Source: an uncultured Acidobacteriota bacterium (GTDB lineage: Bacteria; Acidobacteriota; Thermoanaerobaculia; UBA5066; Gp7-AA6). From it: a stretch of DNA of 64,000 nucleotides. Below are positions 7,146 through 59,984 of the stretch, piece by piece. The translations under genes and the position numbers were made by a program. The first letter of the stretch is position 1; each line of letters starts with the position of its first letter. Where the stretch lies: NCBI GenBank assembly GCA_963738945.1, contig CAVTYD010000002.1, positions 911,027-975,026 of the forward strand, given 5' to 3'. Below the pieces are notes generated by a model. It was not told the origin of the DNA and searched no databases. It saw nothing but the letters and a program-made list of their open reading frames with translations.

Positions 7146-7152
7146 GCTTCGG

Positions 7153-15276: not shown

Positions 15277-15282
15277 TAGAAT
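15277..15282 (+). promoter_or_regulatory. putative -10 box TAGAAT for hutH (9 nt before the ATG; near-leaderless)
   Basis: AT-rich hexamer in a GC-rich intergenic region. The same TAGAAT hexamer recurs upstream of prs, rplY, rnpB and the ORF at 31278. Confidence 0.4.
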
Positions 15283-15291
15283 CGCCGGCGC

Positions 15292-16809
15292 ATGCGGACC
15301 TTGCGCGTCTCCGGGTCGAGCCTCGGCCTGGACGATCTCGTCGCGGTGTCCCGTCGCCTGGCGCGCGTCGTTCTTTCGGCCGGGGCGCGGCGGTCCATGG
15401 CGGCTTCGCGCCGCGTCGTGGATCGGGCCATCCGGCGGGGGGCGACGGTGTACGGCGTGACCACCGGCTTCGGGAAGTTCGCCGACGTCGCCATCGCGCC
15501 CTCGGACATCGCCGAACTGCAGCGCAATCTCGTCCGCAGCCACGCCGCGGGAGTCGGTCCGCCGCTCGGAGCGGAGGCCGTGCGGGCGATGATGCTGCTG
15601 CGAGCCAACGCGCTCGCGCGCGGCAACTCCGGCATCCGCGTCGCCGCCGTCGAGACGCTGCTCGCGATGCTCGCCGCCGACGTGCTGCCGGTCGTGCCGT
15701 CGCAGGGCTCGGTCGGAGCCTCCGGCGACCTCGCGCCGCTGTCTCACCTGGCGCTGGCTCTCATCGGCGAGGGGAGGGTGACGCTGAAGGGCCGGGAGAT
15801 GCCGGCGAAGTCCGCGTTGCGCCGCGCGCGAATCCGGCCCGTGGCTCTCGCCGCCAAGGAGGGCCTCGCGCTGATCAACGGGGTGCAGATGTCGGTCGCC
15901 GTCGGCGGTCTGGCGCTCGCGCGGGCGATCGATCTGTCCCGGGTGAGCGACGTGATCGGAGCGGCGTCCGTGGACGCTTCGCGGGGCTCCGATACCGCCT
16001 TCGACCCTCGAATCGTCGCCGCGCGCCCGCACCCGGGTGCGATCGCGAGCGCCCGCAATCTCCGGCGTCTCCTGCGGGGCAGCGCGATCCGGGAATCGCA
16101 TCGCGGCTGCGGGCGGGTCCAGGACAACTACGCGCTGCGCTGCATGCCCCAGGTCCACGGCGCGGCACGGGATGCCTTCGCCCACGCCCGGGGCGTCCTC
16201 GAGACGGAGATGAACAGCGCGACCGACAACCCCCTCGTCTTCGCCGCCGCCGGCGACATCCTGTCGGGGGGAAACTTTCACGGGGCGCCGGTCGGCCTGG
16301 TGCTCGACTATGCGGCCGTCGCGGCCACGGACCTCGCCTCGATTTCCGAACGGCGCATCGAGAAGCTCGTCAATCCGGCGCTCTCCGACCTGCCGGCATT
16401 TCTCGTGGAGGAGGGCGGGCTCCACTCGGGCCTCATGATGGCCCAGGTGACCGCGGCCGCGCTCGTCTCGGAATGCAAGATCCTCGCACACCCGGCGTCG
16501 GTCGACTCCATCCCGACGTCCGCGGCCAAGGAGGACCACGTCTCGATGTCGCCGATCGCGGCTCGCAAGCTGGCGGCGATCGTCGAGAACCTCGAGCGGG
16601 TCCTCGCGATCGAGGCCCTCGCCGCCTTCCAGGCCATGGAATTCCTGCGGCCCCTGTCCTCGTCGGCTCCGCTCGAGAAGCTGCGCCGTGACTTTCGGCG
16701 TGCGGTCCGACCCTGGAACCGGGATCGCGAGATGCACGCCGAGATCGAGTCCGCGCGCCGCTTCCTGAGAAGCGAGCCGATGTCGCAGGCGATCGCGGGC
16801 CTCGCGTAG
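15292..16809 (+). CDS. hutH: histidine ammonia-lyase
   Basis: ORF 15292..16809. GSVGASGDLAPLSH carries the MIO-forming Ala-Ser-Gly. Confidence 0.95.
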   Translation: MRTLRVSGSSLGLDDLVAVSRRLARVVLSAGARRSMAASRRVVDRAIRRGATVYGVTTGFGKFADVAIAPSDIAELQRNLVRSHAAGVGPPLGAEAVRAMMLLRANALARGNSGIRVAAVETLLAMLAADVLPVVPSQGSVGASGDLAPLSHLALALIGEGRVTLKGREMPAKSALRRARIRPVALAAKEGLALINGVQMSVAVGGLALARAIDLSRVSDVIGAASVDASRGSDTAFDPRIVAARPHPGAIASARNLRRLLRGSAIRESHRGCGRVQDNYALRCMPQVHGAARDAFAHARGVLETEMNSATDNPLVFAAAGDILSGGNFHGAPVGLVLDYAAVAATDLASISERRIEKLVNPALSDLPAFLVEEGGLHSGLMMAQVTAAALVSECKILAHPASVDSIPTSAAKEDHVSMSPIAARKLAAIVENLERVLAIEALAAFQAMEFLRPLSSSAPLEKLRRDFRRAVRPWNRDREMHAEIESARRFLRSEPMSQAIAGLA

Positions 16810-16832
16810 CGCGCGGGGCGCAGCGCCCGGAA

Positions 16833-16838
16833 TATAAT
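16833..16838 (+). promoter_or_regulatory. putative -10 box TATAAT for hutU (7 nt before the ATG; leaderless)
   Basis: Perfect TATAAT in the 36-nt hutH-hutU spacer. No Shine-Dalgarno sequence fits between it and the ATG at 16846. Confidence 0.45.
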
Positions 16839-16845
16839 CCGCGCC

Positions 16846-18516
<1,671 letters not shown>

Positions 18517-18540
18517 CGGCGATTCGGTCCGCGGGCTGAC

Positions 18541-21500
18541 GTGCAACGCCGGGCGCTTCTCGCCGCCGACTTCCTGATCGCCCTCGCGGCCCTCCTCTGG
18601 CTGGACGGCTGGTGGAGCATCCCGGGAAGAAACGCTCCGGCCGCCTCCCCGCCGGCCACGCTCTCCCGGGCTCTGGCGGGAATCGCCGACGACCTCGGTC
18701 AGCGGGCACGGGCCTTCGCGGAGAATCCCGAAGTGTCGCGCTCGCTCGAGGGCGGCGGCATCGCGCTGCAGCGGCAGTCGCTCTTCGCCGCTGCCCGCGA
18801 GGCGATGACCGGGGCATCGCCCGGGAGCTGGATCGCGCTGGCGGATCCCGAGGGCAACGTGCTCGCCTGGTGGGGTGAGGCGCCCGCTCGCATGCCGGCG
18901 GCGCCGCGCGCCGGCTCCCTCTCGATTCGCTGGTCCGCGACGCGGATGGAGCTGGCTCATTGGAGGGCCGCGGGCAGCGGCGTCTTCTCGGGGGTCGTGT
19001 GCGCCGCGCGCTGGCTGCCGGTCGAGGCGCCGGGGTTTGCCGAGGCGCTGGGCTTGACGGGAGCCGCAGTCGCATGGGAGCCCGTGTCGCCGGAGGCCGG
19101 CCGCCCGGCGCTTCTCGCCGCGGCCGGCAATCCGGTGGTCGGCGGGAGGCGGGCGGAGCCGCCGGTGGCTGGGGTCGAGCCCGGCCGGAACCTGGCTCTC
19201 GTCGTGATCGTCGCCGCCGCCCTCCCCCTGCTCGCCTCGGGACCGCTCGAAGCCGGCCTCGGCCTGGTGCTCGTCTTCTTCGCGGGGGTCGTCGGGTTTG
19301 CGCCGGCGACTCGAGGCCTTTCGGCGCCGGCGGTCTGGGCACTGGCCCTCGGACCCCTCCTGCTCCCGTTTGCGATCGCTCGTCTCCGGGACCAGGAGTC
19401 CCGGCGACCCGCCTGGCGTGTCCCGATGGGCTTCGTGCTGCTCGGCCTCGCGATCCTGCTCGCCCGCTCGGCGGAGGTCCCCGATCTGGTTCCGGGCCTC
19501 TCGCCGGCGAGCCCGGGATTCTTCGGGCTCGTGGCCCTGACGGCGCTGTTCGGCGCGGCGCTCGCGCTCGGCGCTTCGGGAGGAGGGCCGGCGCGGCGCG
19601 GCACGACCAGCCTGGCCGTGTTCGTGACCGCGGCCGCGCTCGTCCTCGGCCTCGCCCTGGTGACCTCCCGGCCGCAGTTCCCGGCCGAGATCGCCGCGGC
19701 CGCCATCGTTTCCTACGAGCTCTGGAGAAGGTCGGTCGCCGGCGCGGGTCGACGCGGACCGCTCGGGCCCTTCCGATTGACGGCCGCGGCCGCGCTGCTC
19801 GTCGTCCTCGTGGCGGCGCCCTCGCATGCTTTCGATCGGATCCTGCGCGCCGATGCGACCGCGGCCTCGATCCGCCTGCCTGATCCGCAGCGCATTTCGG
19901 CGGGGGCGGTGGTCGCCATCCGCCGCGCGGTCGATCGTGTCGAGCGGTTCGATCTCGCGCGAGACCTGCCGGCGCCCCTCGAGGACGTCGACCTCTCGGA
20001 CCTGGCCTATCGACTGTGGCGCGAAGGAGAAGAGGAGGCCGCGTCGGCGACGCTGATCGCCTACGAGGTCTTCGACGTGACGGGTGCGCTGCGCAGCCGC
20101 TTTTCGCTGATCCCCGAGACGGACTTGACCGGCGGCTCGGAAGAATCCACGGCCCTCATCGATCGGTATCGCGTCGCTCTCGTGCGCCGGCGAGCGGCGC
20201 TGAACGACGGCGCCGCCCGATGGGGCCATGTCGTCGTCGAGGTCGCCGACTGGCCGTCGTGGGATCCGCTTCCGCAGCGGCTCGCGGTGTACCGGCGCCT
20301 GGTGGGCGGCGATTCGTCCGCGGTCCAGACGCCGCGCCCGGTCATCGCGCTGTACGGACCGGACGGAGTCCGCCGCGACGAGGGGCCGCAGCTCTCGCCG
20401 GCTCTCCTGATGCGCGTGCGCCGCACCGGCCTGCCGGCCGTCCTCCGCGTCCGGTATCGGGGCGAGGAGCTCCAAGGCGAGGTGCGGCCGCTCAAGGATG
20501 GGTTCGAGCTCGTCGCGATTCCGGGTCCTGGGTTTCTCGAGCGGCTGCTCGCCGCCACGCAGCTGCTCGTGGCCGCGGCGGCGCTCTACGTCGTCGGCCT
20601 GTTCGTGGTCGTCTGGCGGCGCGTGGCGGAGAGGCGTCCGGTCGCGCAGGCGTTCCCGACCGCGGGCCGGAGCTTCCGGGGGCGTCTCGTGGCGCTCTTC
20701 GTGCTTTCGGTGATGGTGCCGCTGATGGCGGTGACGTTCTTCCTGAGGGCCTCGATCGCCACGCGCTCGCGGCGCGACACGCTCGATCACGGCCGCACCG
20801 CGCTCGACACGGCGCGCCGGGTGCTCGACGATTATCTTCCGACCGCCGAGGCCCAGCTCGGCCGGCTCGGCCTGATCGACGACACGCTGCTGTCCTGGCT
20901 CGCCAATGCGGTGGGCTACGACCTGTCCGTGTACTCCCCGGAGGCGAGGCTGGTCGCGACGTCGCGCCGCGACCTCTATGCGGCCGGCCTGCTCCCTCAG
21001 CGCGTGCCCGGGGCGACGTACACGGCGATCGGTCTCGGGGCGGCGCGCGAGCTGATCGACGCCCGGCTCATCGCGGGGAGCCGCTTCGAGGAGATCACGA
21101 CCGAGCTCTCGTCGCTGCCGGGAGTGCCGGGAGTGCGAAGCCCCGGCCTGCTGTCGCTGCTCCTGCTGCCGCAGCAGCGCATCGCGGAGGCGGAGGCCGC
21201 GCAGCTGACCGCCGCGGTCTCCGCGTTCAGCCTGCTGGTCTTCCTGGTCTCGGCGGCGATCGCGGGCCGGCTCGCCGTGCGGGTTGCCCGACCGGTCGCG
21301 GATCTCGTCGAGGGGACGCGCGCCGTGGCGCGGGGAGACTTCTCCCCGAAGCTGGCGGAGCCGCCGGACGAAGAGCTGAGGGAGCTCGTCCGGGCTTTTC
21401 TCTACATGTCCCGAAGCCTGAAGGAACAGACCGACGCGCTGTCGCGCGAGAAGGAACGCCTCGCCGCGCTTCTCGCCCAGTTGACCGCCGGTGTCGTGGC

Positions 21501-22452
21501 CTACCGCGACGACGGCGCCGTGCTCCTCGCCAATCCCGCGGCCGCCAAGCTCGGAGGCGGGCGCGCCGGCGGCGAGACCCTCGAGGACGTCTTTCCCGGG
21601 GATGCGATGAAGGGGCTGCGAAGCGCGCTCACGAGCGGCCGCGGGGGCGAGTCGGCCGAGCTCGAGCCTCGCGCCGGCGAGCGATGGCGCGTGGTCACGG
21701 TACCGCTGCCCCTGGGCGGTGCCGGTGCGCGGATGGCGGTCATCGAGGACGTGTCGGACCTCGTTCGCTCCAATCGGCTGGCGGCCTGGGCCGAGATGGC
21801 GCGGATCATCGCCCACGAGATCAAGAATCCGTTGACTCCCATCCGCCTCTCGGTCGAACATCTTCGCGAGGTCTGGAGGCGCGGATCGCCCGACTTCGAT
21901 CGCATTCTGGAGGAGTGCGTGCAGAACGTGCTGCGGCAGACGGAGACCCTGCGCCACTCGGCCGCCGAGTTTTCCGACTACGCGAGGCTCCCGAGGCCGG
22001 AGATGCGGCCGCTCGCCGTGGAAGAGCTCTTGCACGAGGCCGCGGCCGCCTACGCGGGCGCTCCGCGGGTGCGCATCGCCGTCGAGGCCCCGCCGGACCT
22101 TCGAGCCCTCGGCGATGCCCGGCTGCTCTCGCGGTTGCTGTCGAATCTCGTCGGAAACTCGGTCGAGGCGCTCGGAGCCGGCGGCAGCGTCCGGCTGTCG
22201 GCCGAGCGCCGCGGACGGCGCGTCGTGATCTCGGTCGAAGACGACGGCCCGGGCGTGTCCGCGGAGATCCTTCCGCGGCTCTTCGACCCCTACTTCTCGG
22301 CCAAGAGCGGCGGAACGGGGCTCGGGCTCGCCATCGCGAAGAAGATCGTGGAAGAGCATGGAGGCTCGATCGGCGCGGAAAATCGGCCGCCGGCGGGCCT
22401 CCGGGTGCGCTTCGACCTTCCGGAGGCCGAGGCTTCGGGGGGGGCGGCGTGA
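18541..22452 (+). CDS. large membrane-bound sensor histidine kinase (NtrY-like HAMP-PAS-HisKA-HATPase core)
   Basis: ORF 18541..22452, 1303 aa. Many TM segments in the first ~700 aa. H-box IAHEIKNPLTPIRLSVEHL, N-box LSNLVGNSVEAL, G-boxes VEDDGPGV and GGTGLGLAIAKKIV. Confidence 0.85.
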   Translation: MQRRALLAADFLIALAALLWLDGWWSIPGRNAPAASPPATLSRALAGIADDLGQRARAFAENPEVSRSLEGGGIALQRQSLFAAAREAMTGASPGSWIALADPEGNVLAWWGEAPARMPAAPRAGSLSIRWSATRMELAHWRAAGSGVFSGVVCAARWLPVEAPGFAEALGLTGAAVAWEPVSPEAGRPALLAAAGNPVVGGRRAEPPVAGVEPGRNLALVVIVAAALPLLASGPLEAGLGLVLVFFAGVVGFAPATRGLSAPAVWALALGPLLLPFAIARLRDQESRRPAWRVPMGFVLLGLAILLARSAEVPDLVPGLSPASPGFFGLVALTALFGAALALGASGGGPARRGTTSLAVFVTAAALVLGLALVTSRPQFPAEIAAAAIVSYELWRRSVAGAGRRGPLGPFRLTAAAALLVVLVAAPSHAFDRILRADATAASIRLPDPQRISAGAVVAIRRAVDRVERFDLARDLPAPLEDVDLSDLAYRLWREGEEEAASATLIAYEVFDVTGALRSRFSLIPETDLTGGSEESTALIDRYRVALVRRRAALNDGAARWGHVVVEVADWPSWDPLPQRLAVYRRLVGGDSSAVQTPRPVIALYGPDGVRRDEGPQLSPALLMRVRRTGLPAVLRVRYRGEELQGEVRPLKDGFELVAIPGPGFLERLLAATQLLVAAAALYVVGLFVVVWRRVAERRPVAQAFPTAGRSFRGRLVALFVLSVMVPLMAVTFFLRASIATRSRRDTLDHGRTALDTARRVLDDYLPTAEAQLGRLGLIDDTLLSWLANAVGYDLSVYSPEARLVATSRRDLYAAGLLPQRVPGATYTAIGLGAARELIDARLIAGSRFEEITTELSSLPGVPGVRSPGLLSLLLLPQQRIAEAEAAQLTAAVSAFSLLVFLVSAAIAGRLAVRVARPVADLVEGTRAVARGDFSPKLAEPPDEELRELVRAFLYMSRSLKEQTDALSREKERLAALLAQLTAGVVAYRDDGAVLLANPAAAKLGGGRAGGETLEDVFPGDAMKGLRSALTSGRGGESAELEPRAGERWRVVTVPLPLGGAGARMAVIEDVSDLVRSNRLAAWAEMARIIAHEIKNPLTPIRLSVEHLREVWRRGSPDFDRILEECVQNVLRQTETLRHSAAEFSDYARLPRPEMRPLAVEELLHEAAAAYAGAPRVRIAVEAPPDLRALGDARLLSRLLSNLVGNSVEALGAGGSVRLSAERRGRRVVISVEDDGPGVSAEILPRLFDPYFSAKSGGTGLGLAIAKKIVEEHGGSIGAENRPPAGLRVRFDLPEAEASGGAA

Positions 22453-34601: not shown

Positions 34602-35056
34602 AGGCCGTCGTGCAGAGGGTCTCCCGAGCGGCGGTGCGCGTCGCCGGCCGGACCGTCGGCGAGATCGAGCGCGGGTTCCTGGTGCTCCTGGGCGCGGAGA
34701 CGGGCGACGATCCGGCCCTCGCCGAGGAGGCCGCGCGCAAGATCGCCGGTCTCCGCGTCTTCGATGACGAGGCCGGGAAGATGAACCTCGCGCTCGCCGA
34801 CGTCGGGGGCGCGGTGCTCGCGGTGTCTCAATTCACGCTCGCCGCGGATCTCTCGCGCGGGCGGCGTCCGGGCTTCGAGCGCGCGCTGCGCGGCCCCGAG
34901 GCGGAGCCGCTCTACGAGCGGTTCGTCGCGGCCCTGCGCGACGCAGGCCTGACGGTCGCGACCGGAATCTTCGGCGCCTCGATGGAGGTCGAGCTCGTCA
35001 ACGACGGCCCCGCGACGTTCCTGGTGGACCTGTCCAAGCGCGAGCCGTCCGTCTAG
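34598..35056 (+). CDS. dtd: D-aminoacyl-tRNA deacylase
   Basis: ATG at 34598 (ATGA overlap). Translation MKAVVQRVSRA...GFLVLLG...SQFTLAAD...RPGF is typical. Confidence 0.93.
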   Translation: MKAVVQRVSRAAVRVAGRTVGEIERGFLVLLGAETGDDPALAEEAARKIAGLRVFDDEAGKMNLALADVGGAVLAVSQFTLAADLSRGRRPGFERALRGPEAEPLYERFVAALRDAGLTVATGIFGASMEVELVNDGPATFLVDLSKREPSV

Positions 35057-35922
35057 ACGAACCGGATCGGCGTGAGCGAGAAGCTGACGAGAAACACCGC
35101 CACGCACAGCAGCGCGACGAGCGTCCGCCCGAAGTCGAGCGGGGCGTCGTCGTCCTCGACGGGAGGGTGGCGTATGCCCATCAGCAGCGCGACGAGGAGC
35201 GGAAGGACGAGCCAGACCGACGAGCGCGTCACGCCGGCGAGGACGCACAGCCCGAGCGCGACCGCCGAGACGATCGGCTGGCGCCTGCCCAGAGCGGCGC
35301 GCAGGACGTGTCCGCCGTCGAGCTGGCCGATCGGCAGGAGGTTCAGACACGTCACCAGCAACCCGAACCATGCCGCCATGAAGGCGGGGTGCTCATGGAC
35401 GGTCGCGCTCGTGTACGGCCCGACGCCCACCCAGTGTTGCGCCCAGCGGACGATCAGCGGATATCCGAAGAGGACCTCGCCGGGCTGAGGGGGACTCGAG
35501 TTCGGCTGGGGATGGGCGGCGCCATAGAGAAGAAACGGGATCGCGGTGAAGAAGCCGGCGAGGGGCCCGGCGGCACCGACGTCGAGAAGCTGCTTCTTCC
35601 AGCGGATCGGCTCCTTGATGCGAATCACCGCGCCGAACGTGCCGATGATGTTCAGGAAGGGCGACGGGATGAAGTAGGGGAGCGTGGCCGCGAGCCCGTA
35701 TCGGCGGCACATCGCGTAGTGCCCCAGCTCGTGCACGCCGAGGATCGCGAGCAGCGGCACCGAGAAGGGAAGCCCGTCCGTGAAATGACCGTGGAGAAGC
35801 GGGCCGCCTCCGGGCGCGAACACGCCGCCCGCCAGGGTCGTCGTCACGAAGGTGGCGAGCAGAAGCCCGAGGTGAAAGAGCGGGTGCTCGAGCGTGCGGC
35901 GCCAGCCGCGCGGCGGAGGCAT
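35053..35922 (-). CDS. site-2 protease family (M50) membrane zinc metalloprotease
   Basis: Inner ATG at 35922 of ORF 35053..36507. HELGHY zinc motif, downstream NLLPIGQLDGG motif, multiple TM segments. Confidence 0.85.
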   Translation of the reverse strand: MPPPRGWRRTLEHPLFHLGLLLATFVTTTLAGGVFAPGGGPLLHGHFTDGLPFSVPLLAILGVHELGHYAMCRRYGLAATLPYFIPSPFLNIIGTFGAVIRIKEPIRWKKQLLDVGAAGPLAGFFTAIPFLLYGAAHPQPNSSPPQPGEVLFGYPLIVRWAQHWVGVGPYTSATVHEHPAFMAAWFGLLVTCLNLLPIGQLDGGHVLRAALGRRQPIVSAVALGLCVLAGVTRSSVWLVLPLLVALLMGIRHPPVEDDDAPLDFGRTLVALLCVAVFLVSFSLTPIRFV

Positions 35923-35957
35923 CGCCTCCGCGAAGGGATCGGGCGCCGGGCCGTCCA

Positions 35958-37250
35958 CTAAGCGGGGAGCGCCCGCCGCAGATCGAGGAGCAGCCGCGCG
36001 AGCGAGCTTCCGAGCGCGCTCGCCGCGATCTCGAGACCGCGGTAGTCCTCCTCCGAGAGCGGGGCGCCGAGGCGGTCCGCGTACAGGAACGCGACGAGGC
36101 GATCCTTGATGCGGACCGGGAAGACCGCGCAGCACGCCGCGGCCTTGTCGCCAAGCAGGGCGGCGAGCTTCGGCGGAATGAGGATCCGGGACAGCGGGCC
36201 CCGGTGGGGCGATCCCGAAAGCTTGACGAACGCAAAAATGGACGGCTCGCCCCAGGGGATCCGCACGCCGGAGATCTGGTCGCGCGTCAGGCCGCCGCCG
36301 CGCGCCGTCCATCCGAAAACGCCGTCCTGGCCCGACGTGAGCAGGAACGCCCGCGGCAGACGGCCGCAGACGGTTTCGAGCGTCGACTCCGCGAGCCGAT
36401 CGCGCGCCGGAGTCCGCGGGGGCTCGGCCGCGGGCGACGGCTCGGCGGCGTGGGCTTCCCACATCGACCGGACCTGCGAGTCGTCGGAGTCCTCGTCCGC
36501 CTTCCACATGCGATCGGCCATCTCGTCGGGCGTGAGGGTATGCGGCGGCGTGAACTCGGGCAGCAGGTCCGTCGCATCGGCGAGCTCGCCCGGCTGTTCG
36601 GCGGCGATGAAGGGGGCGGCATAGCTGACCGGATGAGAGACGTCGGCGTCCGCCGCCGAGGCCGGCGTCTTCGCGATGGCGATTGGCCGACCGGGCAGCG
36701 GGCTCGCGTTGACGAAGCGCCCGCGCCGGGGCGCCGGCTGGGTCGCCCGCGTCCGGTAGAGCCGCCGCTCTTCGTTGCGCTCGAGCTTGCCGAGCACGCC
36801 CCGAAACTCGATCGGGATCGGCCGGCCGTAGAAAAGGTTGAATGCCTGGAGCAGGCGGATCTCCGAGATCACGGCCGGCACGACCGGCCGGTTCGTCACG
36901 GCCGAGACCTCGTCCACCGCCGCGAGATTCGAGGGGTTCTTGAACGCGACGCGCACACCCCGCCCTTCGAGGGCGTAGGGAATCGCGGCGAGACGAACGG
37001 CGGCCCGTTCCGGGAGAAGCCGAACGACCTGGGGAGGGGCCTTCAGGACGTCGGACCAGGTCACGTAGTCGCAGCGGTGAATGACCGACAGGGCGCGCAG
37101 GAGGTTCTCTTCCGGAAGAAGATCTCGGTCGAGAAGGATCGTCCCGAGGCGGAAGGGCTCGCCCGTATGCCGCTGGAAGCCGAGCGCACTCTGCACGGCG
37201 AGTTCGGAAACGACGCCGTCCGCAACGAGAAGCTCGCCGATTCGCGGCAT
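35958..37250 (-). CDS. MshEN (T2SS-E N-terminal-like) domain protein with Pro-rich linker and GAF-like C-terminal domain; paralog 1
   Basis: ORF 35958..37250. N-terminus RIGELLVADGVVSELAVQSALGFQ matches the MshEN c-di-GMP-binding motif. No ATPase domain. C-terminal domain shared with 37566..38879. Confidence 0.8.
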   Translation of the reverse strand: MPRIGELLVADGVVSELAVQSALGFQRHTGEPFRLGTILLDRDLLPEENLLRALSVIHRCDYVTWSDVLKAPPQVVRLLPERAAVRLAAIPYALEGRGVRVAFKNPSNLAAVDEVSAVTNRPVVPAVISEIRLLQAFNLFYGRPIPIEFRGVLGKLERNEERRLYRTRATQPAPRRGRFVNASPLPGRPIAIAKTPASAADADVSHPVSYAAPFIAAEQPGELADATDLLPEFTPPHTLTPDEMADRMWKADEDSDDSQVRSMWEAHAAEPSPAAEPPRTPARDRLAESTLETVCGRLPRAFLLTSGQDGVFGWTARGGGLTRDQISGVRIPWGEPSIFAFVKLSGSPHRGPLSRILIPPKLAALLGDKAAACCAVFPVRIKDRLVAFLYADRLGAPLSEEDYRGLEIAASALGSSLARLLLDLRRALPA

Positions 37251-37270
37251 CGTGTGATTCTACAGTTTGG

Positions 37271-37540
37271 CTAAGGCAGGTCCCGCAAGTCTTTTCCCGG
37301 CTTGAACCGGATCGTGTTCCCCGGAGGAATCGAAACCTCGACGCCCGTTTTCGGATTGCGGCCGATGCCGCGCTTGCGTCGCTTCACCTGGAAGACGCCG
37401 AATCCCCGCAGCTCGATCCGGTCGCCGGCTCCGAGAGCCGAGCGCATCGCCTCGATGACCGTTTCGACGGCCGTCGCGGCCTTCGCGCGCGGAATCTGAG
37501 CGAGGTCGACCACCCGGTCCACGATGTCGGCTTTGATCAT
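37271..37540 (-). CDS. HU/IHF family DNA-binding protein
   Basis: 89 aa. RGFGVFQVKRRKRGIGRNPKTGVEVSIP is the beta-arm signature. Confidence 0.9.
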   Translation of the reverse strand: MIKADIVDRVVDLAQIPRAKAATAVETVIEAMRSALGAGDRIELRGFGVFQVKRRKRGIGRNPKTGVEVSIPPGNTIRFKPGKDLRDLP

Positions 37541-37565
37541 GATTTCCTCCGGGGTTGATCCCGGA

Positions 37566-38879
37566 TTATATAACCTGCTTTTTCTTCAATCGGATGGAGG
37601 CCGCCAGGGCCGCCGCCGCGGCGCCGGAGAGCTCACGCAGGTAAGTCAGGTCCGCCGGGGTCGCCCCCTGCGCCCCCGCACATTCCGCATACAGGAATGC
37701 CACGGTCTTGTCCCGCATCCGGACCGGCTGGACGACGCATTCGGTCGGCCACCCTCCGAGGGCCGCCGCCAGGGCGTCGTGACGAGGCAGGGGCGGGAGC
37801 GGGCCGAGATAGAAGGCCTGGCCCATGCGAACGTTCAGGAAGATGGACGGCTCGGTCCAGGGGATCAGGAGCGCCCGCAGGGCGCGCTGATCCACGCGCT
37901 CGCCGGCGCCGCTCCATCCCGCCGCCCCGTCGGAACGCGCGGCGAAGACCGCGCTGCGAGCGAAGCGCCGGCGTAGAGCGCGGAGGGCCGCGTCGAACAC
38001 GCCGTCGCGATCTCGCGCCGCGAGCATCTCGCTGAAATCGGCATTGGTCGGCATGCCGGCGACGGGAGACGGCGTCTCGTGGGCGGGGGCCGCCGCTCGG
38101 CGCCACGGAACGGGCGGATGGGGCGCGGTGGGCGTGGCGACGGGCGGCTCGGCCGGCACGGAGGCCTGCCCGGGAAGCTCCTCCCAGGGAATGGCCTCGA
38201 GATCGTCCTCGGAGCCTTCGGGCGGGGGGGGCGCCGGCTGGTTGGCCCAGCCGACCGGCGGAAGGTCCGCGACGGTCCAGATGGGCGGGGTCTGCGGCCC
38301 ATCGTCGGCCGCGGACGGCTCGACGGCGGGCTCGCCGGGCATCGGGACTCTCTCCGTCGAAAAGTCGGGCGGCGGAGGCAGGGGCTTCTTGATCACGGAC
38401 GGCGCGATCGGGCGCGACAGCTTCTCGGCGAGGATCGCGAACCGCGGCGTCCGGCGCTCGCCGTAGCACTTCTCGAGCGCCTGGTAGATGCGGACCTCGG
38501 GGGCCGCGGCGGGGACGATTTTCTTTCCGGTGACGAAGAAGAGCTCGTCGAGGATGCGGAGGTTCGAGGGATCCCGGAGGACGACGCGGACGAATCCTTC
38601 GCCGACTTCCACCGGAACGGCGGAGTGCCGGATCGCGAACTTCGCCGGAAGCGCCGCGATGACCGCGGGCGGCAGAGAGCCGAGTGTTTTCCAGGGAACG
38701 TATTCGCAGCCGTGCTGTTCGGCGAGGGCACGGCCGACGTCGTCTTCGGAGACGGAGCCTCGTTCGAGCAGAAGGGTACCGACCCGGCCGCCCGTAAATC
38801 CCTGAACGGCCAGCGCCCGGTGCACGTTCTCTTCGCTCACGGCGCCGGCTCGAACCAGCAGGACACCCAGTCGCGGCAT
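37566..38879 (-). CDS. MshEN (T2SS-E N-terminal-like) domain protein with Pro-rich linker and GAF-like C-terminal domain; paralog 2
   Basis: ORF 37566..38879. Tandem motifs RLGVLLVRAGAVSEENVHRALAVQ, spacer GFTGG, then RVGTLLLERGSVSEDDVGRALAEQ. Confidence 0.8.
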   Translation of the reverse strand: MPRLGVLLVRAGAVSEENVHRALAVQGFTGGRVGTLLLERGSVSEDDVGRALAEQHGCEYVPWKTLGSLPPAVIAALPAKFAIRHSAVPVEVGEGFVRVVLRDPSNLRILDELFFVTGKKIVPAAAPEVRIYQALEKCYGERRTPRFAILAEKLSRPIAPSVIKKPLPPPPDFSTERVPMPGEPAVEPSAADDGPQTPPIWTVADLPPVGWANQPAPPPPEGSEDDLEAIPWEELPGQASVPAEPPVATPTAPHPPVPWRRAAAPAHETPSPVAGMPTNADFSEMLAARDRDGVFDAALRALRRRFARSAVFAARSDGAAGWSGAGERVDQRALRALLIPWTEPSIFLNVRMGQAFYLGPLPPLPRHDALAAALGGWPTECVVQPVRMRDKTVAFLYAECAGAQGATPADLTYLRELSGAAAAALAASIRLKKKQVI

Positions 38880-38998
38880 TCGCTATCCGATTATCGCGTA
38901 ACCCGGAGAAGAAAGGAGCCGTTCGGCTCCCGGCCGGCGTTCTCGCTTCGAGGACAGCATAACGCCCGCGCGGGCGCGTCCGAGCGCGGCGAACGTGT

Positions 38999-42796: not shown

Positions 42797-42808
42797 AATC
42801 GCCCCGGA

Positions 42809-42884
42809 TGGGGCGTCGCCAAATTGGTAAGGCACCGGCCTTTGGAGCCGGCATCTCCAGGTTCGAGTCCTGGCGCCCCAGCCA
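42809..42884 (+). tRNA. tRNA-Gln (anticodon TTG), CCA encoded
   Basis: Hand-folded cloverleaf. Acceptor stem TGGGGCG/CGCCCCA, anticodon stem CCGGC/GCCGG with loop CTTTGGA, T-arm CCAGGTTCGAGTCCTGG, discriminator G, then CCA. Confidence 0.92.
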
Positions 42885-42972
42885 ACCGTCCATTCGGCGG
42901 CGGATAGGCGAGAGATTTGCAAGGGTCGCCAGCGAGCGGTCAGTGGTCGCTCAGACTTCTAAGGAGGCTCCG

Positions 42973-43656
42973 ATGCGTTCCCGGTTCTCCCGCCCGGCCT
43001 TTCTCGGCCTCGCCCTTGCGGCGGTTCCCCTCGTTCTTGCCGCCCAGAGTGTGAACGCCAGTTTCACTTACTCGCCGCACAATCCCACCCTCGGTCAGAT
43101 GGTTCAGTTCACGGATACGACCACGCCTGCTCCGGGCTCCTGGGCGTGGAACTTCGGGGACCCGAATTCGGGTACTTCGAACACGTCGACGGTCCAGAAT
43201 CCGACGCATCTCTTCAGCGCGGTCGGGACCTACCAGGTGACCATGACCGTTCCCGGCGCGAACCCGGTCGTCCAGGCCGTCACGGTGCAGAGCACTACAG
43301 GCACGTGCCAGCAGGGCCCGGGGTTCCTGTGCCTGAACGGCGGTCGCTTCCAGGTCAACGCCACCTGGACAAAGACCGACGGGACGTCCGCCGCGGGAAC
43401 CGCGGTGACGCTGACGGACGACTCCGGCTACTTCTGGTTCTTCGACCCGGCCAACATCGAGATGGTCGTGAAGGTCCTGAACGGCTGCTCCCTCACCAAC
43501 GCTTACTGGGTCTTCGCGGCCGGCCTGACGAACGTCCAGGTCGACTGGCAGGTCGTGGACATGCAGACCGGGGTGATCTACACGCAGCAAAACCCCCAGG
43601 GCGTGCCGTTCGCTCCGGTCCAGGACACGAAGGCCTTCCCGACGTCCTGTCCGTAG
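42973..43656 (+). CDS. secreted PKD-domain protein with an uncharacterised Cys-containing C-terminal domain
   Basis: ATG at 42973 preceded by AAGGAGG. Signal peptide. PKD-like FTYSP...VQFTDTT...WNFGD...THLFSAVGTYQVTMTV. C-terminal FLCLNGGRFQV...DSGYFWFF...NGC domain. Confidence 0.8.
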   Translation: MRSRFSRPAFLGLALAAVPLVLAAQSVNASFTYSPHNPTLGQMVQFTDTTTPAPGSWAWNFGDPNSGTSNTSTVQNPTHLFSAVGTYQVTMTVPGANPVVQAVTVQSTTGTCQQGPGFLCLNGGRFQVNATWTKTDGTSAAGTAVTLTDDSGYFWFFDPANIEMVVKVLNGCSLTNAYWVFAAGLTNVQVDWQVVDMQTGVIYTQQNPQGVPFAPVQDTKAFPTSCP

Positions 43657-52909: not shown

Positions 52910-53246
52910 CGGCCGGCGTCGCCGCCGGCCCGGGGGTTGGAGTCCGGGGCTTCAACGGGTTCTTCTTCACGTAGAGCCGGGCGGCATCGTCGACCGGATC
53001 GCCCGAGATCGGCCAGGCGATCATCCGCGGCCTCAGGGCGTTGTCCAGCCCGACGCCGACCAGGGTGTTGCCGTAGCCGGCATCCGGCAGATTCGCCGCG
53101 GCGTCCGCGGGACGCAGCCCGTAAGGAACCGAGCACGGAAACGCCGCGTGGCAGCGGGAGAGCGGAACGAGCTGGGCCCGGAGCGCGCCGCTCGAGGCGA
53201 GCAGCATACCGATTGCGGCCGCGCCGAACTTCGCCCCGCGGCTCAT
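52899..53246 (-). CDS. hypothetical small secreted protein (115 aa)
   Basis: Inner ATG at 53246 of ORF 52899..53444. Signal peptide [18 protein letters not shown] and G/C-rich third codon positions. ATGA overlap with the upstream zinc-ribbon gene. Confidence 0.5.
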
Positions 53247-53458
53247 ATCCAGTGGCACGCGCGGGCGAGCCCCGCCAGGACCAGCAGAAGCGCGGCGATC
53301 GCGGCCGCCCAGACCGCCGTGCGCGATTTGGTCGCCAGCGGCCGCTGGCGGGTGTAGAAGCCGGTCTGCCACCGCTCGAGCTCGCGGTTGCACTTGGGGC
53401 ACACGGGAGTGCCGGGCTCCACCGGGGTGTAGCAGTACGGGCACTCGTACATCGGCAT
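53243..53458 (-). CDS. zinc-ribbon (CxxC...CxxC) protein with C-terminal TM helix (71 aa)
   Basis: Last 71 codons of ORF 53243..54892: MPMYECPYCYTPVEPGTPVCPKCNREL...AVWAAAIAALLLVLAGLA. Coding-like codon bias. Confidence 0.6.
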   Translation of the reverse strand: MPMYECPYCYTPVEPGTPVCPKCNRELERWQTGFYTRQRPLATKSRTAVWAAAIAALLLVLAGLARACHWI

Positions 53459-53464
53459 GCGGTG

Positions 53465-53470
53465 ATCATA
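53465..53470 (-). promoter_or_regulatory. putative -10 box TATGAT 6 nt upstream of the zinc-ribbon gene ATG (leaderless)
   Basis: The reverse strand reads GCAGTATGATCACCGCATG. No Shine-Dalgarno sequence is possible. Confidence 0.4.
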
Positions 53471-53486
53471 CTGCCGGCGAGCGCGA

Positions 53487-53619
53487 GTCCTTTTCGTAGC
53501 CCGGCCCTCGCCTTGCTCGGCCCGAGCTACGACGCGGCGTTTTCCCGCCGCGGGTCTTTTCGCAGCCCAGCCCTCGCTTTGCTCGGCCTGGTCTACGACG
53601 CGGCGTTTTCCCGCCGCGG
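53487..53619. repeat. tandem direct duplication (67 + 66 nt, ~90% identical) of a structured intergenic repeat
   Basis: Unit 1 at 53487..53553 and unit 2 at 53554..53619 aligned by hand (6 substitutions, 1 indel). Each ends in hairpin CGCGGCG-ttttcc-CGCCGCG. Confidence 0.75.
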
Positions 53620-53644
53620 GTGGGGTTCGGGTTACACTCACGTC

Positions 53645-55460
53645 GTGGTCGAGCCTCGCCGCGGCCCGGAGAATCTGCCGGATTCCCCGGGCGTCTATCT
53701 CTTCCGCGGCGACAGGGGGAAGATCCTCTACGTCGGCAAAGCCCTGTCGCTGCGCAAACGCGTCGCCTCCTACTTCAACCCGGCCGGGGGCGGCGCGAAA
53801 GAAGAGGCTCTGCGCCGACTTCACCGCGAGGTCGAAACGATCTCGACGCGCACGGAGCTCGAGGCGCTGCTGCTCGAAAACACGCTCATCAAGAAGCACC
53901 GCCCGAAATACAACGTCTGCCTGCGCGACGACAAGACCTATCCCTACATCAAGATCACGACCGGCGAGGACTGGCCTCGGGCTCTCGTCACGAGGCGTGT
54001 CGAGGAGGACGGACACTCCTACTACGGCCCGTTCTGGGGTGGCCTGGCGCGTCGGATCATGCGGATGATCACGCGCCACTTCCAGATCCGCACGTGCACG
54101 ATCGAGATCGACGGAAAGCTCCCCAGGCCGTGCCTCTACTACGACCTTCACGCCTGTCTCGGCCCGTGCGTGGCGGGGCTGACGACGAGGGAGACGTATC
54201 GGAGCGCCGTCCACGACGTCGTGCTCTTCCTCGAGGGGCGCAACCGCGAGCTCGAGGCGAGCCTGACCGCGAAGATGCAGACCTCGGCGGAGGCCGAGAA
54301 CTTCGAGATGGCCGCCGCCTACCGGGACGCCCTTCGCACGGTCCGCGACGTGTCGGAGAGCCAGGTCGTCCAGTCGCTCCGAGGCGAGAACGTCGACGTC
54401 TTCGGATTCTTCGAGTCCGGACAGGACGTGGCCATCTGCGTTCTGGTCGTGCGCGGCGGAGTCCTCCAGGACCGGCGCGACTTCTTCTTCGAAAAGGCGC
54501 AGGAGCTCGACCCGCCGGCGTTTCTCGAGGCGTTTCTGCCCCAGTTCTACGATGCGAATCCGTTTCTCCCCTCCGAGGTTCACCTTCCCGTCACGATCGC
54601 GGGCGCGAAGCTGGTCGAGGACTACATCGCGGCGCGCCGCAACGCGAAGGTCGCGGTGCGCACGCCGCAGCGCGGGGATGCGGCCGACCGCATCCGCATG
54701 GCGGAGACGAACGCGCGCGAGCGCCACCGGGTCCGCTTCCGCGGGACCGGGGGCGACGAGGCGGTCGCCGTCGAGAAGCTGGCGCGCGCGCTCGGCCTCG
54801 GCGATCCCGCCCCGGCGCATCGAGGCCTTCGACATCTCGCACACGCAGGGGACGGACAGCGTGGCCTCGCTCGTGGTGTTCGAGGAGGGCAAGCCGAAGA
54901 AGTCCGACTACCGCCTCTTCAACATCGAGTCGCAGACCCTGCTCGAGCCGGACGACTTCCGGAGCATGGCCGAGGCCGTGGATCGCCGGTATCGCCGCCT
55001 CCAAGCGGAAGGCTCGCCGATGCCCGACCTGATCCTGATCGACGGCGGGCGCGGGCAGCTCCAGGCGGCGCTGACCGCTCTCGACCGGCTGGGCCTCGAC
55101 CTTCCGGCCGTCGGCCTCGCCAAGCGGGAGGAAGAGATCTGGGCGCCGGGGCGGCCCGAGCCCATCCGTCTGTCGCGAAAGGATCCGGCCCTGCAGCTCG
55201 TCCAGCGCGTCCGGGACGAGGCGCATCGGTTCGCGATCTCGAGACATCGACAGCGCCGCGGAAAGCGGATGCGCCAGACCGGCCTGACGGAGATCCCGGG
55301 AGTCGGCCCGGTGCGCGCCCGGTTGCTGCTGCGCCGGTTCGGTTCCGTGAAGGGCTTGCGGGTCGCCGATCCGCGCGAGATCGCGGCGGCCGTCGGCCCG
55401 ACGACGGCGCGCGCCGTGGCCGCGTACCTCGGCGCGGGGGAGGGAGCGGCGGGCGCATGA
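53645..55460 (+). pseudogene. uvrC: excinuclease ABC subunit C, interrupted by one +1 frameshift near 54810 as assembled
   Basis: The GIY-YIG N-terminus PGVYLFRGDRGKILYVGKALSLRKRV is in the frame of ORF 52937..57259. From RIEAFDISHTQG onward (with the HhH C-terminus) it is in the frame of ORF 54552..55460. Length is 1816 nt, i.e. 3n+1. Confidence 0.9.
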
Positions 55461-57259
55461 GAACGGTGTTCGAGCCCGAGGGGGACCTGCGCGGGGTAGA
55501 CGTGCTCGCGGCGTTCGTGGCGCTCTGGCGCGCGGCGGGAAGCGGGTCGCTGCAGTTCTCGAGGTCCGGCGCGACCGCCGGGTTCGAGATCGCCGGAGGA
55601 GAGCTCCTCGCCAGCTCCTCCTCGGATCCCCGCTTCGACACGGCCGCCATTCTCGTTCGGGCGGGAAAGCTCGACACGCGGACGCTCGAGCGGCTCGCCG
55701 CGCCGGAAGGAGCGGACCGGGCGCTGCTGGCCCTCCAGGCCGGGGTCCTCACGCGCCGCGAATACCGCTGGGGCGAGAAGATCCGGGCGGTCGAGATCCT
55801 CTCCGATCTGCTGACCTGGCTCGAAGGGGAGTACTTCTTTCTTCCGAGGGAGGAACCCGAGCGGGAAACGACCGAGCCCCGCCTGCCGATTCCGCGGCTG
55901 ATCCTCGAGCTGTTCCTGAGGTCGCGCGACCGCAGCCTCGTCCTGAAACACCTCGGCGGGGCGGACGTGCCGCTGGCCCGCGCGTCGAATTTCGACGCCG
56001 AATTCGCGACCTTCGGCCTGACGGCCGACGCCGAATCGGTCGTCCGTCTGATCGATGGGACCTCGAGCGCCGCCGAGATCGCGAGCGAGGCTCCCGCCGA
56101 GTCCTTCGCCATCGAAAAGCTCCTGGCAGCTCTCGTCACGCTCGGTCTCGTGGCGCCGGCGTTCGCCGGAGCGGGACCGGCCGAGTCTCAGCCTCCGGCG
56201 CCGCTCGCGGTCGAACGCGAGGCGATCGGGGAGACCGGCGCCGCGGAGGAAGAAGTTCGAGGAGAGGAAGAAGAGGCGGAAGAAGACGCGGAAGAACGGC
56301 CGCCAACGGGCGCCGAGCGGATGACGGAAGAGCCGGCCGCGCCTTCGGAGGCCCTCGACGAGGCCGCCCGGTCATGGGACGAGGAAGACCGGCACGCCGC
56401 GGAAGAGGAATCGGGCGAGGGCCCGAGCGAGCTCGGCGACGAGCTCGAGGACGAGGAGGAGGCGGCCGAGGAGGAGCCCGTGGACGCGCCTCTCTCCGGC
56501 CGGGCTTCGGTCGCGCCCGATCTGGAGTTTGCGAGCCTGGGCGACGAGCCGGGACGAGCCGTCCCGGAGGCATCGAACCTGGCGGTCGGAGAAGCGGCGG
56601 GCTTCGATCGGCCGCTCGACACGGCCTCGAACGGCGACCTCGAGCGTCCGCCGCAGCGCTCCGGCTCTCTCCTGATCTGGGTTCTCGCTCTTCTCGCCGC
56701 GGGCGTCGTGGCGATTCTCTGGCTGCGCGGCCGCGGCCCTGCCGCTCCGGCGGCCGCCGTCGCCGCTCCGACGGCCACGGCCACGGAGATGCCGACGACT
56801 CCCGTGGGACCGGGTGCCGAAGCGACACCGGCGCCCTCGACTCCCGTGCCGGCCGCGGCGGTTCCCACCGAGGCCCCGATGGCGGCGCCGACGCGGACGC
56901 GCCCGACGGCCGTGCCGCCTTCCGCCGCGGCGCCGGCGGCGGCGGGACATACGAATTCCCGGCAGTACTGGCAGGACCGCGCGGCGCGCGATGCCCGCCG
57001 CCTTTCGACCGACAAGAAGACGCGCTATGCGATCCAGCTCGAGCTCGCCTGTGAAGTCGGCTCGCTCGTGGACGCCTTCCAGCACGACCGGCCCGCGGGC
57101 ACGATGTGGGTCCTCGCGACCTCGTACCAGGGCCGGACGTGCTTCCGGGTGCTCTGGGGCCGATACGCCACGCCGGAAGCGGCCCGGCGCGCGATTTCGG
57201 GCGTCCCGCGCTTCTTCGTGACCTCGAAAAACCACCCCGCCGTCACCGGCGTGCGCTGA
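55457..57259 (+). CDS. DUF4388 (PATAN-like) domain membrane protein with acidic linker, one TM helix, Pro/Ala/Thr-rich region and SPOR-like C-terminus
   Basis: ATG at 55457 (ATGA overlap with uvrC). N-terminal GDLRGVDVLAAFVALWRAAGSGSLQF... is DUF4388-like. TM segment LLIWVLALLAAGVVAILWL. C-terminal YAIQLEL...CFRVLWGRYATPEAARRA is SPOR-like. Confidence 0.65.
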   Translation: MRTVFEPEGDLRGVDVLAAFVALWRAAGSGSLQFSRSGATAGFEIAGGELLASSSSDPRFDTAAILVRAGKLDTRTLERLAAPEGADRALLALQAGVLTRREYRWGEKIRAVEILSDLLTWLEGEYFFLPREEPERETTEPRLPIPRLILELFLRSRDRSLVLKHLGGADVPLARASNFDAEFATFGLTADAESVVRLIDGTSSAAEIASEAPAESFAIEKLLAALVTLGLVAPAFAGAGPAESQPPAPLAVEREAIGETGAAEEEVRGEEEEAEEDAEERPPTGAERMTEEPAAPSEALDEAARSWDEEDRHAAEEESGEGPSELGDELEDEEEAAEEEPVDAPLSGRASVAPDLEFASLGDEPGRAVPEASNLAVGEAAGFDRPLDTASNGDLERPPQRSGSLLIWVLALLAAGVVAILWLRGRGPAAPAAAVAAPTATATEMPTTPVGPGAEATPAPSTPVPAAAVPTEAPMAAPTRTRPTAVPPSAAAPAAAGHTNSRQYWQDRAARDARRLSTDKKTRYAIQLELACEVGSLVDAFQHDRPAGTMWVLATSYQGRTCFRVLWGRYATPEAARRAISGVPRFFVTSKNHPAVTGVR

Positions 57260-59570: not shown

Positions 59571-59966
59571 CCGAGCGGGCCACGTGATCGCTCCGGACTC
59601 CTTTTAACGAGAAGTCCGGGGAGGAAAGTCCGAACTCCACACGGGCGGCATGCCGGGTAACCCCCGGTCGCGGCGACGCGAAGGAAAGTGCCACAGAGAA
59701 CAGACCGCCTTCCGAAAGGACGGCAAGGGTGAAACGGTGCGGTAAGAGCGCACCGCTCCGCCGGCAACGGCGGGGGCACGGTAAACCCCATGCGGAGCAA
59801 GGCCAAATAGGGAGACAGTGGGCGCCCGTCCCGCCTCACACGTCGTGAGCTGTCTCCGGGTCGGCTGCTCGAGCCCGAGGGCGACCTCGGGCCCAGAGGA
59901 ATGATCGCGGCCTCGGCCGGGGAGACCCGCCGGGGTACAGAATTCGGCTTATCGGCCCGCTCGGAG
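59571..59966 (+). ncRNA. rnpB: RNase P RNA, bacterial type A
   Basis: Universally conserved blocks GGAGGAAAGTCCGAAC (P4), GTGCCACAGAGAA, GGTGAAACGGTGCGGTAAGAGCGCACC, GGTAAACCCCATGCGGAGCAAGGCCAAATAGG and ACAGAATTCGGCTTATCGG. P1 pairing is CCGAGCGGGCC with GGCCCGCTCGG. Confidence 0.93.
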
Positions 59967-59984
59967 CTCTTCGAAGGCCGACTG

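Follow-up and report, generated by a model that had tools for sequence, protein, structure and literature searches.

Two MshEN-linker-GAF proteins flanking an HU/IHF gene in an uncultured acidobacterium: a candidate c-di-GMP receptor and its diverged paralog

The DNA stretch analyzed here (the window) comprises 64,000 nucleotides of contig CAVTYD010000002.1 (positions 911,027 to 975,026) from an uncultured Acidobacteriota bacterium of the Thermoanaerobaculia. Two paralogous proteins encoded in it, termed P1 and P2, carry an MshEN domain, a domain type found in receptors for cyclic di-GMP (c-di-GMP), and their genes lie on either side of a gene of the HU/IHF family. The locus raises the question of whether P1 and P2 are c-di-GMP receptors, and whether their position around the HU/IHF gene reflects a common function. 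An initial annotation had proposed both by describing the locus as a candidate orphan c-di-GMP receptor module. In the reading that we hold to be probable, both proteins are soluble and serve in signalling or as adaptors, P2 is most likely a c-di-GMP receptor, and the link to HU is positional. The two genes are:

37566..38879, minus strand: P2, MshEN-linker-GAF protein (open reading frame, Pfam and NCBIfam matches, 334 homologs, trees)
35958..37250, minus strand: P1, diverged paralog with the same architecture, between the HU and M50 genes (open reading frame, 253 homologs, trees)

Both open reading frames proved to be real, and the peptide strings quoted from them in the initial annotation are all correct. 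P2 has 437 residues and P1 has 430. The proteins are 34% identical over 415 residues (BLASTP, E 4e-44) and share one architecture, in which an MshEN domain is followed by a Pro/Ala-rich linker and a C-terminal GAF-type domain. The MshEN family PF05157 matches residues 69–143 of both proteins well over its gathering score of 23.1 bits. No T2SSE ATPase domain was found by Pfam in P1 or P2, in agreement with the earlier claim that the secretion ATPase is missing. NCBIfam models of PilB and GspE align to the N-terminal ~140 residues only and score far under their cutoffs. Beyond MshEN and GAF, the domain search gave no other domain, enzymatic or DNA-binding. A membrane-like segment is likewise absent from both proteins (maximum Kyte-Doolittle 19-residue score 1.4). 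P1 and P2 belong to the MshEN family and, by fold, to the GAF class; they lie outside the GspE/PilB ATPase families.

The missing ATPase is not unusual, because ATPase-less MshEN proteins have already been published as a class (PMC5013675, Suppl. Table 4). Its members include PA3740, FrgA (MshEN-UNK-HEAT), NfrB (GT2-MshEN), MshEN-REC, (MshEN_N)2-CheX and Bd2402 (PMC5013675). In these, as in P1 and P2, MshEN appears as a detachable c-di-GMP input on non-ATPase partners, and many of the outputs are unknown. GAF is listed in the same table only as GAF-MshEN-T2SSE; the order MshEN-linker-C-terminal GAF is not listed. A literature search returned no paper on an MshEN-linker-GAF protein and none on c-di-GMP in Thermoanaerobaculia. 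The MshEN proteins of Myxococcus xanthus other than PilB are uncharacterised (PMC8844925).

The MshEN domains consist of the following parts:

38715..38873, minus strand: P2 MshEN_N, residues 3–55, two 24-residue half-motifs with the spacer GFTGG, predicted c-di-GMP site (NF053729)
38451..38675, minus strand: P2 MshEN_C (T2SSE_N1-like) subdomain, residues 69–143 (PF05157, 53.3 bits)
37080..37244, minus strand: P1 MshEN_N region, residues 3–57, spacer RHTGEPF, eroded half-motif II (NF053729, ortholog alignment)
36822..37046, minus strand: P1 MshEN_C subdomain, residues 69–143 (PF05157, 46.6 bits)

The NCBIfam model NF053729 ('c-di-GMP_motif') describes the 53-residue tandem motif and has a curated cutoff of 38 bits. 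It matches residues 3–55 of P2 with 49.0 bits and those of P1 with 38.1 bits. At E ≤ 1e-9, which approximates the NCBIfam cutoff, it is found in 20/20 proteins of a related single-copy type, in 23 of 24 P2 orthologs and in 14 of 28 P1 orthologs. The N-terminal 150 residues are homologous to the solved c-di-GMP-binding domains of PilF, PilB and MshE. By sequence, the PDB homologs of the P2 N-domain are the N-domains of PilF (the best match), PilB, MshE and XpsE. As in MshE of Vibrio cholerae (PDB 5HTL, PMC5013675), the domain has two subdomains, namely a four-helix bundle built from two 24-residue half-motifs and, after it, a T2SSE_N1-like α/β subdomain; P2 shares the 5-residue spacer. Unlike MshE, P1 and P2 continue into a disordered linker of ~125 residues and a GAF domain, without the T2SSE ATPase. 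The MshEN_C subdomain of P2 is trailed by a conserved helix, YGERRTPRFAILAEKL.

Arg1, Gly3, Gly10 and Gln24 are retained in both half-motifs of P2 across orthologs. The canonical spacer GFTGG noted earlier is present, and a length of five residues is kept in 42/42 scored orthologs. Deviations from the motif among P2 orthologs are conservative: position 17 has Val or Ile in place of Leu, and position 11 has Ala or Ser. The P2 half-motifs hold 9/11 and 8/11 key positions, which equals the scores of a validated binder (PMC11731258). In P1, half-motif I is good. Half-motif II also holds 9/11 key positions, with Gly10 replaced by Asp43 and Gln24 by Ile57. These two residues and the 7-residue spacer RHTGEPF are invariant among 28 orthologs; in a set of 66 sequences the spacer has seven residues in 65 and position 24 is Ile or Leu in 58. 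By these features of half-motif II and the spacer, P1 differs from the MshE motif.

Several points weigh against c-di-GMP binding. The strict published 24-residue motif RLGxx(L/V/I)(L/V/I)xxG(L/V/I)(L/V/I)xxxxLxxxLxxQ, present twice (Wang et al. 2016), was absent from all 52 P1/P2 orthologs in a pattern search, and the relaxed pattern of Wang et al. 2016 fits half-motif I only. P2 itself departs from the MshE motif by Val for Leu at position 17 in both halves and by Ala or Ser at position 11. Among the PDB homologs, GSPII-A of PilF is an MshEN-like non-binder in which one motif is degenerate (45% of key positions; PMC11731258), and XpsE is another non-binder (PMC5013675). Furthermore, the visible 64 kb contain no gene with a Pfam-detectable GGDEF, EAL or HD-GYP domain, and no type II secretion system or type IV pilus domain was detected either, as the initial annotation had stated; this Pfam scan covered the candidate open reading frames outside the stretch for which gene calls already existed.

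GSPII-B of PilF, on the other hand, binds c-di-GMP at 6 nM despite the absence of both Arg residues and a shorter second motif (PMC11731258). Since GSPII-B binds despite its deviations and GSPII-A does not, reading the motif alone is not decisive. The GSPII-A/B/C domains of Thermus thermophilus PilF (PDB entries 8pfa, 8pdk and 6f8l) are paralogous copies that differ in binding, which is analogous to P2 and P1. Unlike P1 and P2, which are separate proteins with GAF domains, the PilF copies lie in tandem inside one ATPase. Half-motif II of P1 is much less degenerate than the motif of GSPII-A. A full-length AlphaFold model of P2 computed from 24 close orthologs was poor (pLDDT, the predicted local distance difference test, 55.6; N-domain 30–60) and unusable for the c-di-GMP site.

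The MshEN domain of P1, and possibly that of P2, might have lost c-di-GMP sensing and serve as a scaffold for protein interaction only, leaving the GAF domain as the sensor of some small molecule. The absence of the strict motif agrees with such a loss, as do the non-binding precedents XpsE and GSPII-A (PMC5013675; PMC11731258) and the invariant changes of P1, of which G10D and Q24I are non-conservative. However, strong purifying selection acts on the tandem motif of P2 and on that of the single-copy type, among others at Arg1, Gly3, Gly10 and Gln24, and NF053729 scores well over its cutoff in both. The 8–9 of 11 specified positions retained per half-site in P1 and P2 also lie far above the 45% of GSPII-A motif II (PMC11731258). 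We consider a loss of this kind unlikely. The claim that both proteins fit the published motif therefore holds for these 8–9 positions per half-site and fails for the strict pattern. The label of a candidate orphan c-di-GMP receptor can reasonably be given to P2, because its tandem motif is well preserved and its spacer has five residues; it suits P1 less, whose motif is eroded and recognized in half of the orthologs. Judged from sequence, P2 is a plausible binder that probably recognizes c-di-GMP, and P1 is a doubtful one.

The remainder of both proteins is made up of the linker and the C-terminal domain:

38034..38411, minus strand: P2 Pro/Ala-rich linker, ~125 residues, 28% Pro (alignment, composition)
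37569..38033, minus strand: P2 C-terminal GAF-fold domain, residues 283–437 (AlphaFold2 model, Foldseek)
35961..36413, minus strand: P1 C-terminal GAF-type domain, residues 280–430 (alignments to P2, same profile family)

The P2 linker is predicted to be disordered (pLDDT below 50 over residues 183–271). It contains the short motifs KKPLPPPPDFS, VPDxPPVGWGG and ESIPWEE, which are invariant or nearly so among orthologs. The AlphaFold2 model of the P2 C-terminal domain, computed from a diverse family alignment, has a pLDDT of 95.1 and a predicted template modelling (TM) score of 0.90. A Foldseek search of the PDB with this model gave 95 matches at E ≤ 1e-3, and the 50 listed are all GAF domains, the best being the cAMP-bound GAF domain of Lcd1 (5w10; TM score 0.79, E 2.6e-6). 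The earlier call of a GAF-like domain is thus right at the fold level for P2. The GAF domains of P1 and P2 are ~30% identical, and the fold of the P1 domain is inferred by homology to the modelled P2 domain. Compared with solved GAF domains (Lcd1 5W10, PtsP, DevS/DosS, phytochrome and PDE2A), the P2 domain has TM scores of 0.6–0.79 and the same order of secondary structure elements, but only 9–21% sequence identity. Pfam GAF_2 reaches 26.0 bits on P2, with a gathering score of 28.6, and neither GAF nor GAF_2 of Pfam matches the C-terminal domain of P1. Precomputed PF13185 matches exist for many P2 orthologs, and the Joint Genome Institute (JGI) calls some fragments 'GAF domain-containing protein'. 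A PDB sequence search with the profile of the domain gave nothing significant; matches occurred at E~1 only, one of them being 2vzw, which we take to be the GAF domain of DosT.

The NKFDE signature of cyclic-nucleotide-binding GAF domains is absent from P1 and P2, which argues against the GAF domain as the sole sensor. The residues most conserved in it (PSxF, GPLPP and a His) are located between β3 and β5. In GAF domains generally, this segment forms the side of the ligand pocket. This position is a topological inference only, and it would fit a small-molecule sensor. The P2 domain ends in a near-invariant basic tail, IRLKKKQVI.

The MshEN-linker-GAF proteins form a large and uniform family, seen so far in Acidobacteriota-labelled records. 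There are 334 close homologs of P2 and 253 of P1, and the named sources are metagenome-assembled genomes (MAGs) of Thermoanaerobaculia or Acidobacteriota. A lone homolog record is labelled Syntrophomonadaceae, for which mis-binning is suspected. Searched against 1.84 billion representatives, the profile of the C-terminal domain matched 2,793 clusters (50% identity) at E ≤ 1e-3 and 894 at E ≤ 1e-10; some of the weaker matches may be generic GAF proteins. Names were obtained for 3 of 20 clusters, and the family records so far are labelled Acidobacteriota or Thermoanaerobaculia. Among the best 150 profile matches, 95 of the 96 full-length proteins have an MshEN-type N-terminus; the two-domain architecture is thus the family norm. 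Automatic annotation by JGI already tags some members as 'T2SS protein E N-terminal domain/GAF domain'.

Neighbour-joining trees of the N-terminal and of the C-terminal domain each resolve three clean clades, in which P2 falls together with the single-copy type and P1 in a more divergent clade with long branches. Mean N-domain identities are 40% between P2 and the single-copy type, 33% between P1 and the single-copy type and 37% between P1 and P2. By position as well as by phylogeny, P2 is the ortholog of the single-copy MshEN-GAF gene of Thermoanaerobaculia, and P1 is a lineage-specific, faster-evolving duplicate that was inserted downstream of HU. In several long-read MAGs the orthologs of P1 or P2 are split over two or three frames (L003/L033 at 11706–13079, L015, L059, L073, L082 and L083). 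These splits are apparently frameshift errors rather than pseudogenes. The HU gene of locus L046 is likely hidden by an error of the same kind.

The neighbours of P1 and P2 in the window are:

37271..37540, minus strand: HU/IHF-family protein, 89 residues (PF00216, 90 bits against 22.4; best PDB matches IHF and HU)
35053..35958, minus strand: M50-family, site-2-protease-like membrane metalloprotease, 301 residues (PF02163, 74.8 bits)

As described in the initial annotation, the HU/IHF gene lies between the paralogs, the M50 gene follows downstream, and all four genes are co-directional. The HU/IHF protein scores under the NCBIfam equivalog cutoffs for IHF-alpha, IHF-beta, HU-alpha and HU-beta; its class is therefore assigned at the family level only. 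The M50 translation carries the zinc-site motifs HELGH and NLLPIGQLDGGH (LDG), and its PDB matches, mjS2P and SpoIVFB, are weak.

Gene order was compared in two sets of loci. The P2-type set comprises 80 reference-genome loci (44–90% identity), all from Acidobacteriota/Thermoanaerobaculia MAGs, and the single-copy set comprises 80 metagenome loci (35–57% identity to the query P0296; guanine-cytosine (GC) content 0.56–0.77). In P2-type loci, HU follows P2 in 70 of the 71 with enough downstream sequence, P1 follows HU in 68 of 68, and M50 is found downstream in all 68. In single-copy loci, HU follows the MshEN-GAF gene in 51 of 53 and M50 follows HU in 36 of 38; a P1-like gene is present in none of the 80. 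Loci L084 and L085 show the single-copy order too, with five genes inserted between HU and M50 in L085. In L137 and L140 the MshEN-GAF gene adjoins HU and M50 is missing. An insert of ~2.6 kb separates P1 and M50 in the related genomes L067 and L069 (11040–13690).

The ancestral and widespread order is TPR | MshEN-GAF → HU → M50 | dtd. Since this single-copy order is widespread and P1 is restricted to one clade, the 'bracketing' of HU is a derived state. Outside this genome the arrangement is conserved as well, in that P2, HU and P1 are adjacent across that clade. The whole 15-kb block is equally syntenic, with prs-SpoVG-ispE-TPR on one side and dtd-MurJ-SSB on the other. Conserved arrangement as proof of function was rejected because these flanking housekeeping genes are equally conserved. 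Neither HU nor M50 is found near family members of other subtypes or contexts (L086, L087, L170, L171 and L172). In L170, a stand-alone GAF protein of 159 residues (7118–7597) is encoded, together with an MGMT-type DNA_binding_1 gene, directly upstream of the MshEN-GAF gene of another subtype. Flat GC content and the housekeeping context gave no sign of an origin from a defence system or mobile element, for neither of which an aimed search was made.

Conserved signals precede three of the four genes:

38889..38900, minus strand: P2 −10-like box TACGCGATAATC, ending 10 nucleotides before the P2 ATG (ortholog alignment)
37546..37570, minus strand: HU signals, TATAAT (37570..37565) and Shine-Dalgarno sequence GGAGG (37550..37546) (ortholog alignment)
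37257..37262, minus strand: P1 −10-like box TAGAAT, 6 nucleotides before the P1 ATG (ortholog alignment)

The P2 box is conserved over 24 aligned loci (CATAAT for GATAAT in one), at a spacing of 7–11 nucleotides, mostly 10. TATAAT of HU overlaps the P2 stop codon and is present in 30/30 loci, including the clade of 44–55% identity; its Shine-Dalgarno sequence CCGGAGG occurs in all of these loci but one. The P1 box TAGAAT is invariant in 18/18 loci at 5–7 nucleotides from the ATG, although anything from 15 to 106 nucleotides separates HU and P1 there. Having its own conserved −10-like box, each of P2, HU and P1 appears to be transcribed individually, and the interpretation as a single operon is weakened. 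The spacings imply that the mRNAs of P2 and of P1 (the latter with M50) would be leaderless or near-leaderless in this lineage. A generic sigma-70 scan, which requires a −35 box, found no promoter. The IRLKKKQVI tail of P2 is encoded by an AT-rich stretch (37566–37595, minus strand) with the HU −10 box inside, and its conservation may reflect a dual constraint on protein and promoter.

In the leader of P2, a search with Rfam gave no match to a riboswitch or to any other RNA element. One further feature was found there:

38905–38931, minus strand: terminator-like hairpin GGGAGCCGAACGGCTCC with T-tract in the divergent TPR/P2 intergenic region (stem region 38931..38914)

It is present in a few close relatives with differing stem sequences. 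As a conserved feature it was rejected, for the folding z-scores are near 0 in most of 23 orthologous leaders.

Given the block-wide synteny, the separate −10-like boxes and the subtypes without HU, the term 'module' has not gained support. The position around HU is best explained by gene order that was inherited within a very stable block of the chromosome. Two points weigh against this reading. The adjacency of MshEN-GAF and HU persists at 35–55% protein identity and at GC contents of 0.56–0.77, which outlasts usual neutral synteny and keeps a functional tie to HU in play. Furthermore, the −10-like boxes are consensus matches as opposed to mapped transcription starts.

Such a tie would mean that the MshEN-GAF protein binds the HU/IHF-like protein or sets its abundance according to c-di-GMP, which would connect the second messenger with nucleoid structure or with transcription that depends on IHF. 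In addition to the adjacency counts of both sets, its retention in L085 in spite of the five inserted genes and in L137 and L140 without M50 would agree with this, as would the embedding of the HU −10 box in the stop-codon region of P2. CdbA/CdbB of M. xanthus (PMC7156744), where c-di-GMP acts on a nucleoid-associated protein, is a conceptual precedent. CdbA is, however, a ribbon-helix-helix DNA binder that itself binds c-di-GMP; no MshEN, GAF or HU protein takes part, and there is no homology to the P1/P2 locus. In the literature search, CdbA was the only well-documented case of c-di-GMP and a nucleoid-associated protein, and no paper tying MshEN to HU or IHF was found. With prs, SpoVG, ispE, TPR, dtd, MurJ and SSB conserved equally well, a promoter-like box and Shine-Dalgarno sequence of its own at HU, and no HU near the other subtypes, we regard a functional module with HU as very unlikely.

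The only tight physical coupling among the genes is found between P1 and M50, where the P1 stop codon and the GTG start codon of M50 overlap as TAGTG. This suggests translational coupling from P1 to M50. P1, and ancestrally the single-copy protein, might regulate intramembrane proteolysis or serve it as an adaptor, with an anti-sigma factor as one conceivable substrate. The position of M50 after HU in most single-copy loci is consistent with this, and genes for extracytoplasmic function (ECF) sigma factors lie one to three genes from MshEN-GAF in L085 (11713–13049), L170 (10363–11687) and L171 (7207–7785). A zf-HC2 anti-sigma gene stands beside the ECF sigma gene in L085 and L170, and the pair in L085 is directly upstream of M50. 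ECF sigma genes are generally regarded as numerous in Acidobacteria, so these three neighbours are anecdotal, and the ECF sigma/site-2-protease neighbourhood is an anecdotal lead. P1 and P2 have no membrane segment, M50 is missing in L137 and L140 and displaced by ~2.6 kb in L067 and L069, and the resemblance of the M50 protein to site-2 proteases that have been characterised is remote. A role in proteolysis is improbable on balance; if it were true, an ECF sigma response would be under the control of c-di-GMP or of a GAF ligand.

In the preferred reading of P1 and P2 as soluble signalling or adaptor proteins, the N-terminal four-helix bundle of P2 would bind one c-di-GMP. If MshE and PilF are a guide, the two MshEN subdomains would change their relative orientation on binding, as they do in GSPII-B of PilF (PMC11731258). 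The reorientation could alter the access of partners to MshEN_C, to the linker motifs and to the GAF domain. The Pro-rich linker would act as a disordered tether carrying the short conserved motifs, and the role of the GAF domain is probably to mediate dimerisation or to receive a second (ligand) input. In P1 the nucleotide site may be relaxed or altered; co-expressed with M50, P1 may be a partner of P2 that is blind to c-di-GMP or has low affinity for it. As neither protein has a catalytic or DNA-binding domain, the output would have to run through contacts between proteins. That MshEN-GAF, HU/IHF and M50 together form a working unit, in which c-di-GMP read by MshEN-GAF would govern either the nucleoid protein or the intramembrane cleavage of an anti-sigma factor, with the motif-eroded P1 as a c-di-GMP-blind partner or decoy co-translated with the protease in the P1/P2 clade, is very unlikely.

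Some other genes of the window were recorded. A weak match to DUF4388 (22.2 bits, below cutoff) lies at ~55480–55920 (plus strand) downstream of uvrC in the same long frame (open reading frame 52910–57259). One architecture in the literature, MshEN-HD-GYP-REC-DUF4388, combines DUF4388 with MshEN (PMC5013675, Suppl. Table 4). A protein with cyclic-nucleotide-binding and FHA domains (60560–61702, plus strand) is a further second-messenger-type signalling gene in the window. Directly after hutH (15280–16809) and hutU (16810–18516), a HAMP/HisKA/HATPase sensor kinase of 1,311 residues (18517–22452, plus strand) has a very long N-terminal region without Pfam match. The window also contains class A RNase P RNA (59572–59967, plus strand, 296 bits) and a tRNA gene (42809–42881, plus strand). 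The latter overlaps the 5' end of the open reading frame 42808–43656 (PKD-domain protein in the L001 gene calls), the true start of which is therefore located further downstream.

Only a few c-di-GMP receptor domains are predictable from sequence, MshEN among them, and MshEN proteins outside the pilus and secretion ATPases are mostly without known output. The present analysis defines an MshEN-linker-GAF family in the Acidobacteriota, which are abundant in soil but little studied as a phylum, and shows the GAF fold of its C-terminal domain. As it stands, the family of P2 and P1 is a well-defined candidate rather than a surprise, and a target for binding and partner studies. The pair of an intact P2 and an eroded P1 is a natural test of which motif positions and which spacer length matter. 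Should the output turn out to be HU/IHF or M50, c-di-GMP signalling would gain a new branch.

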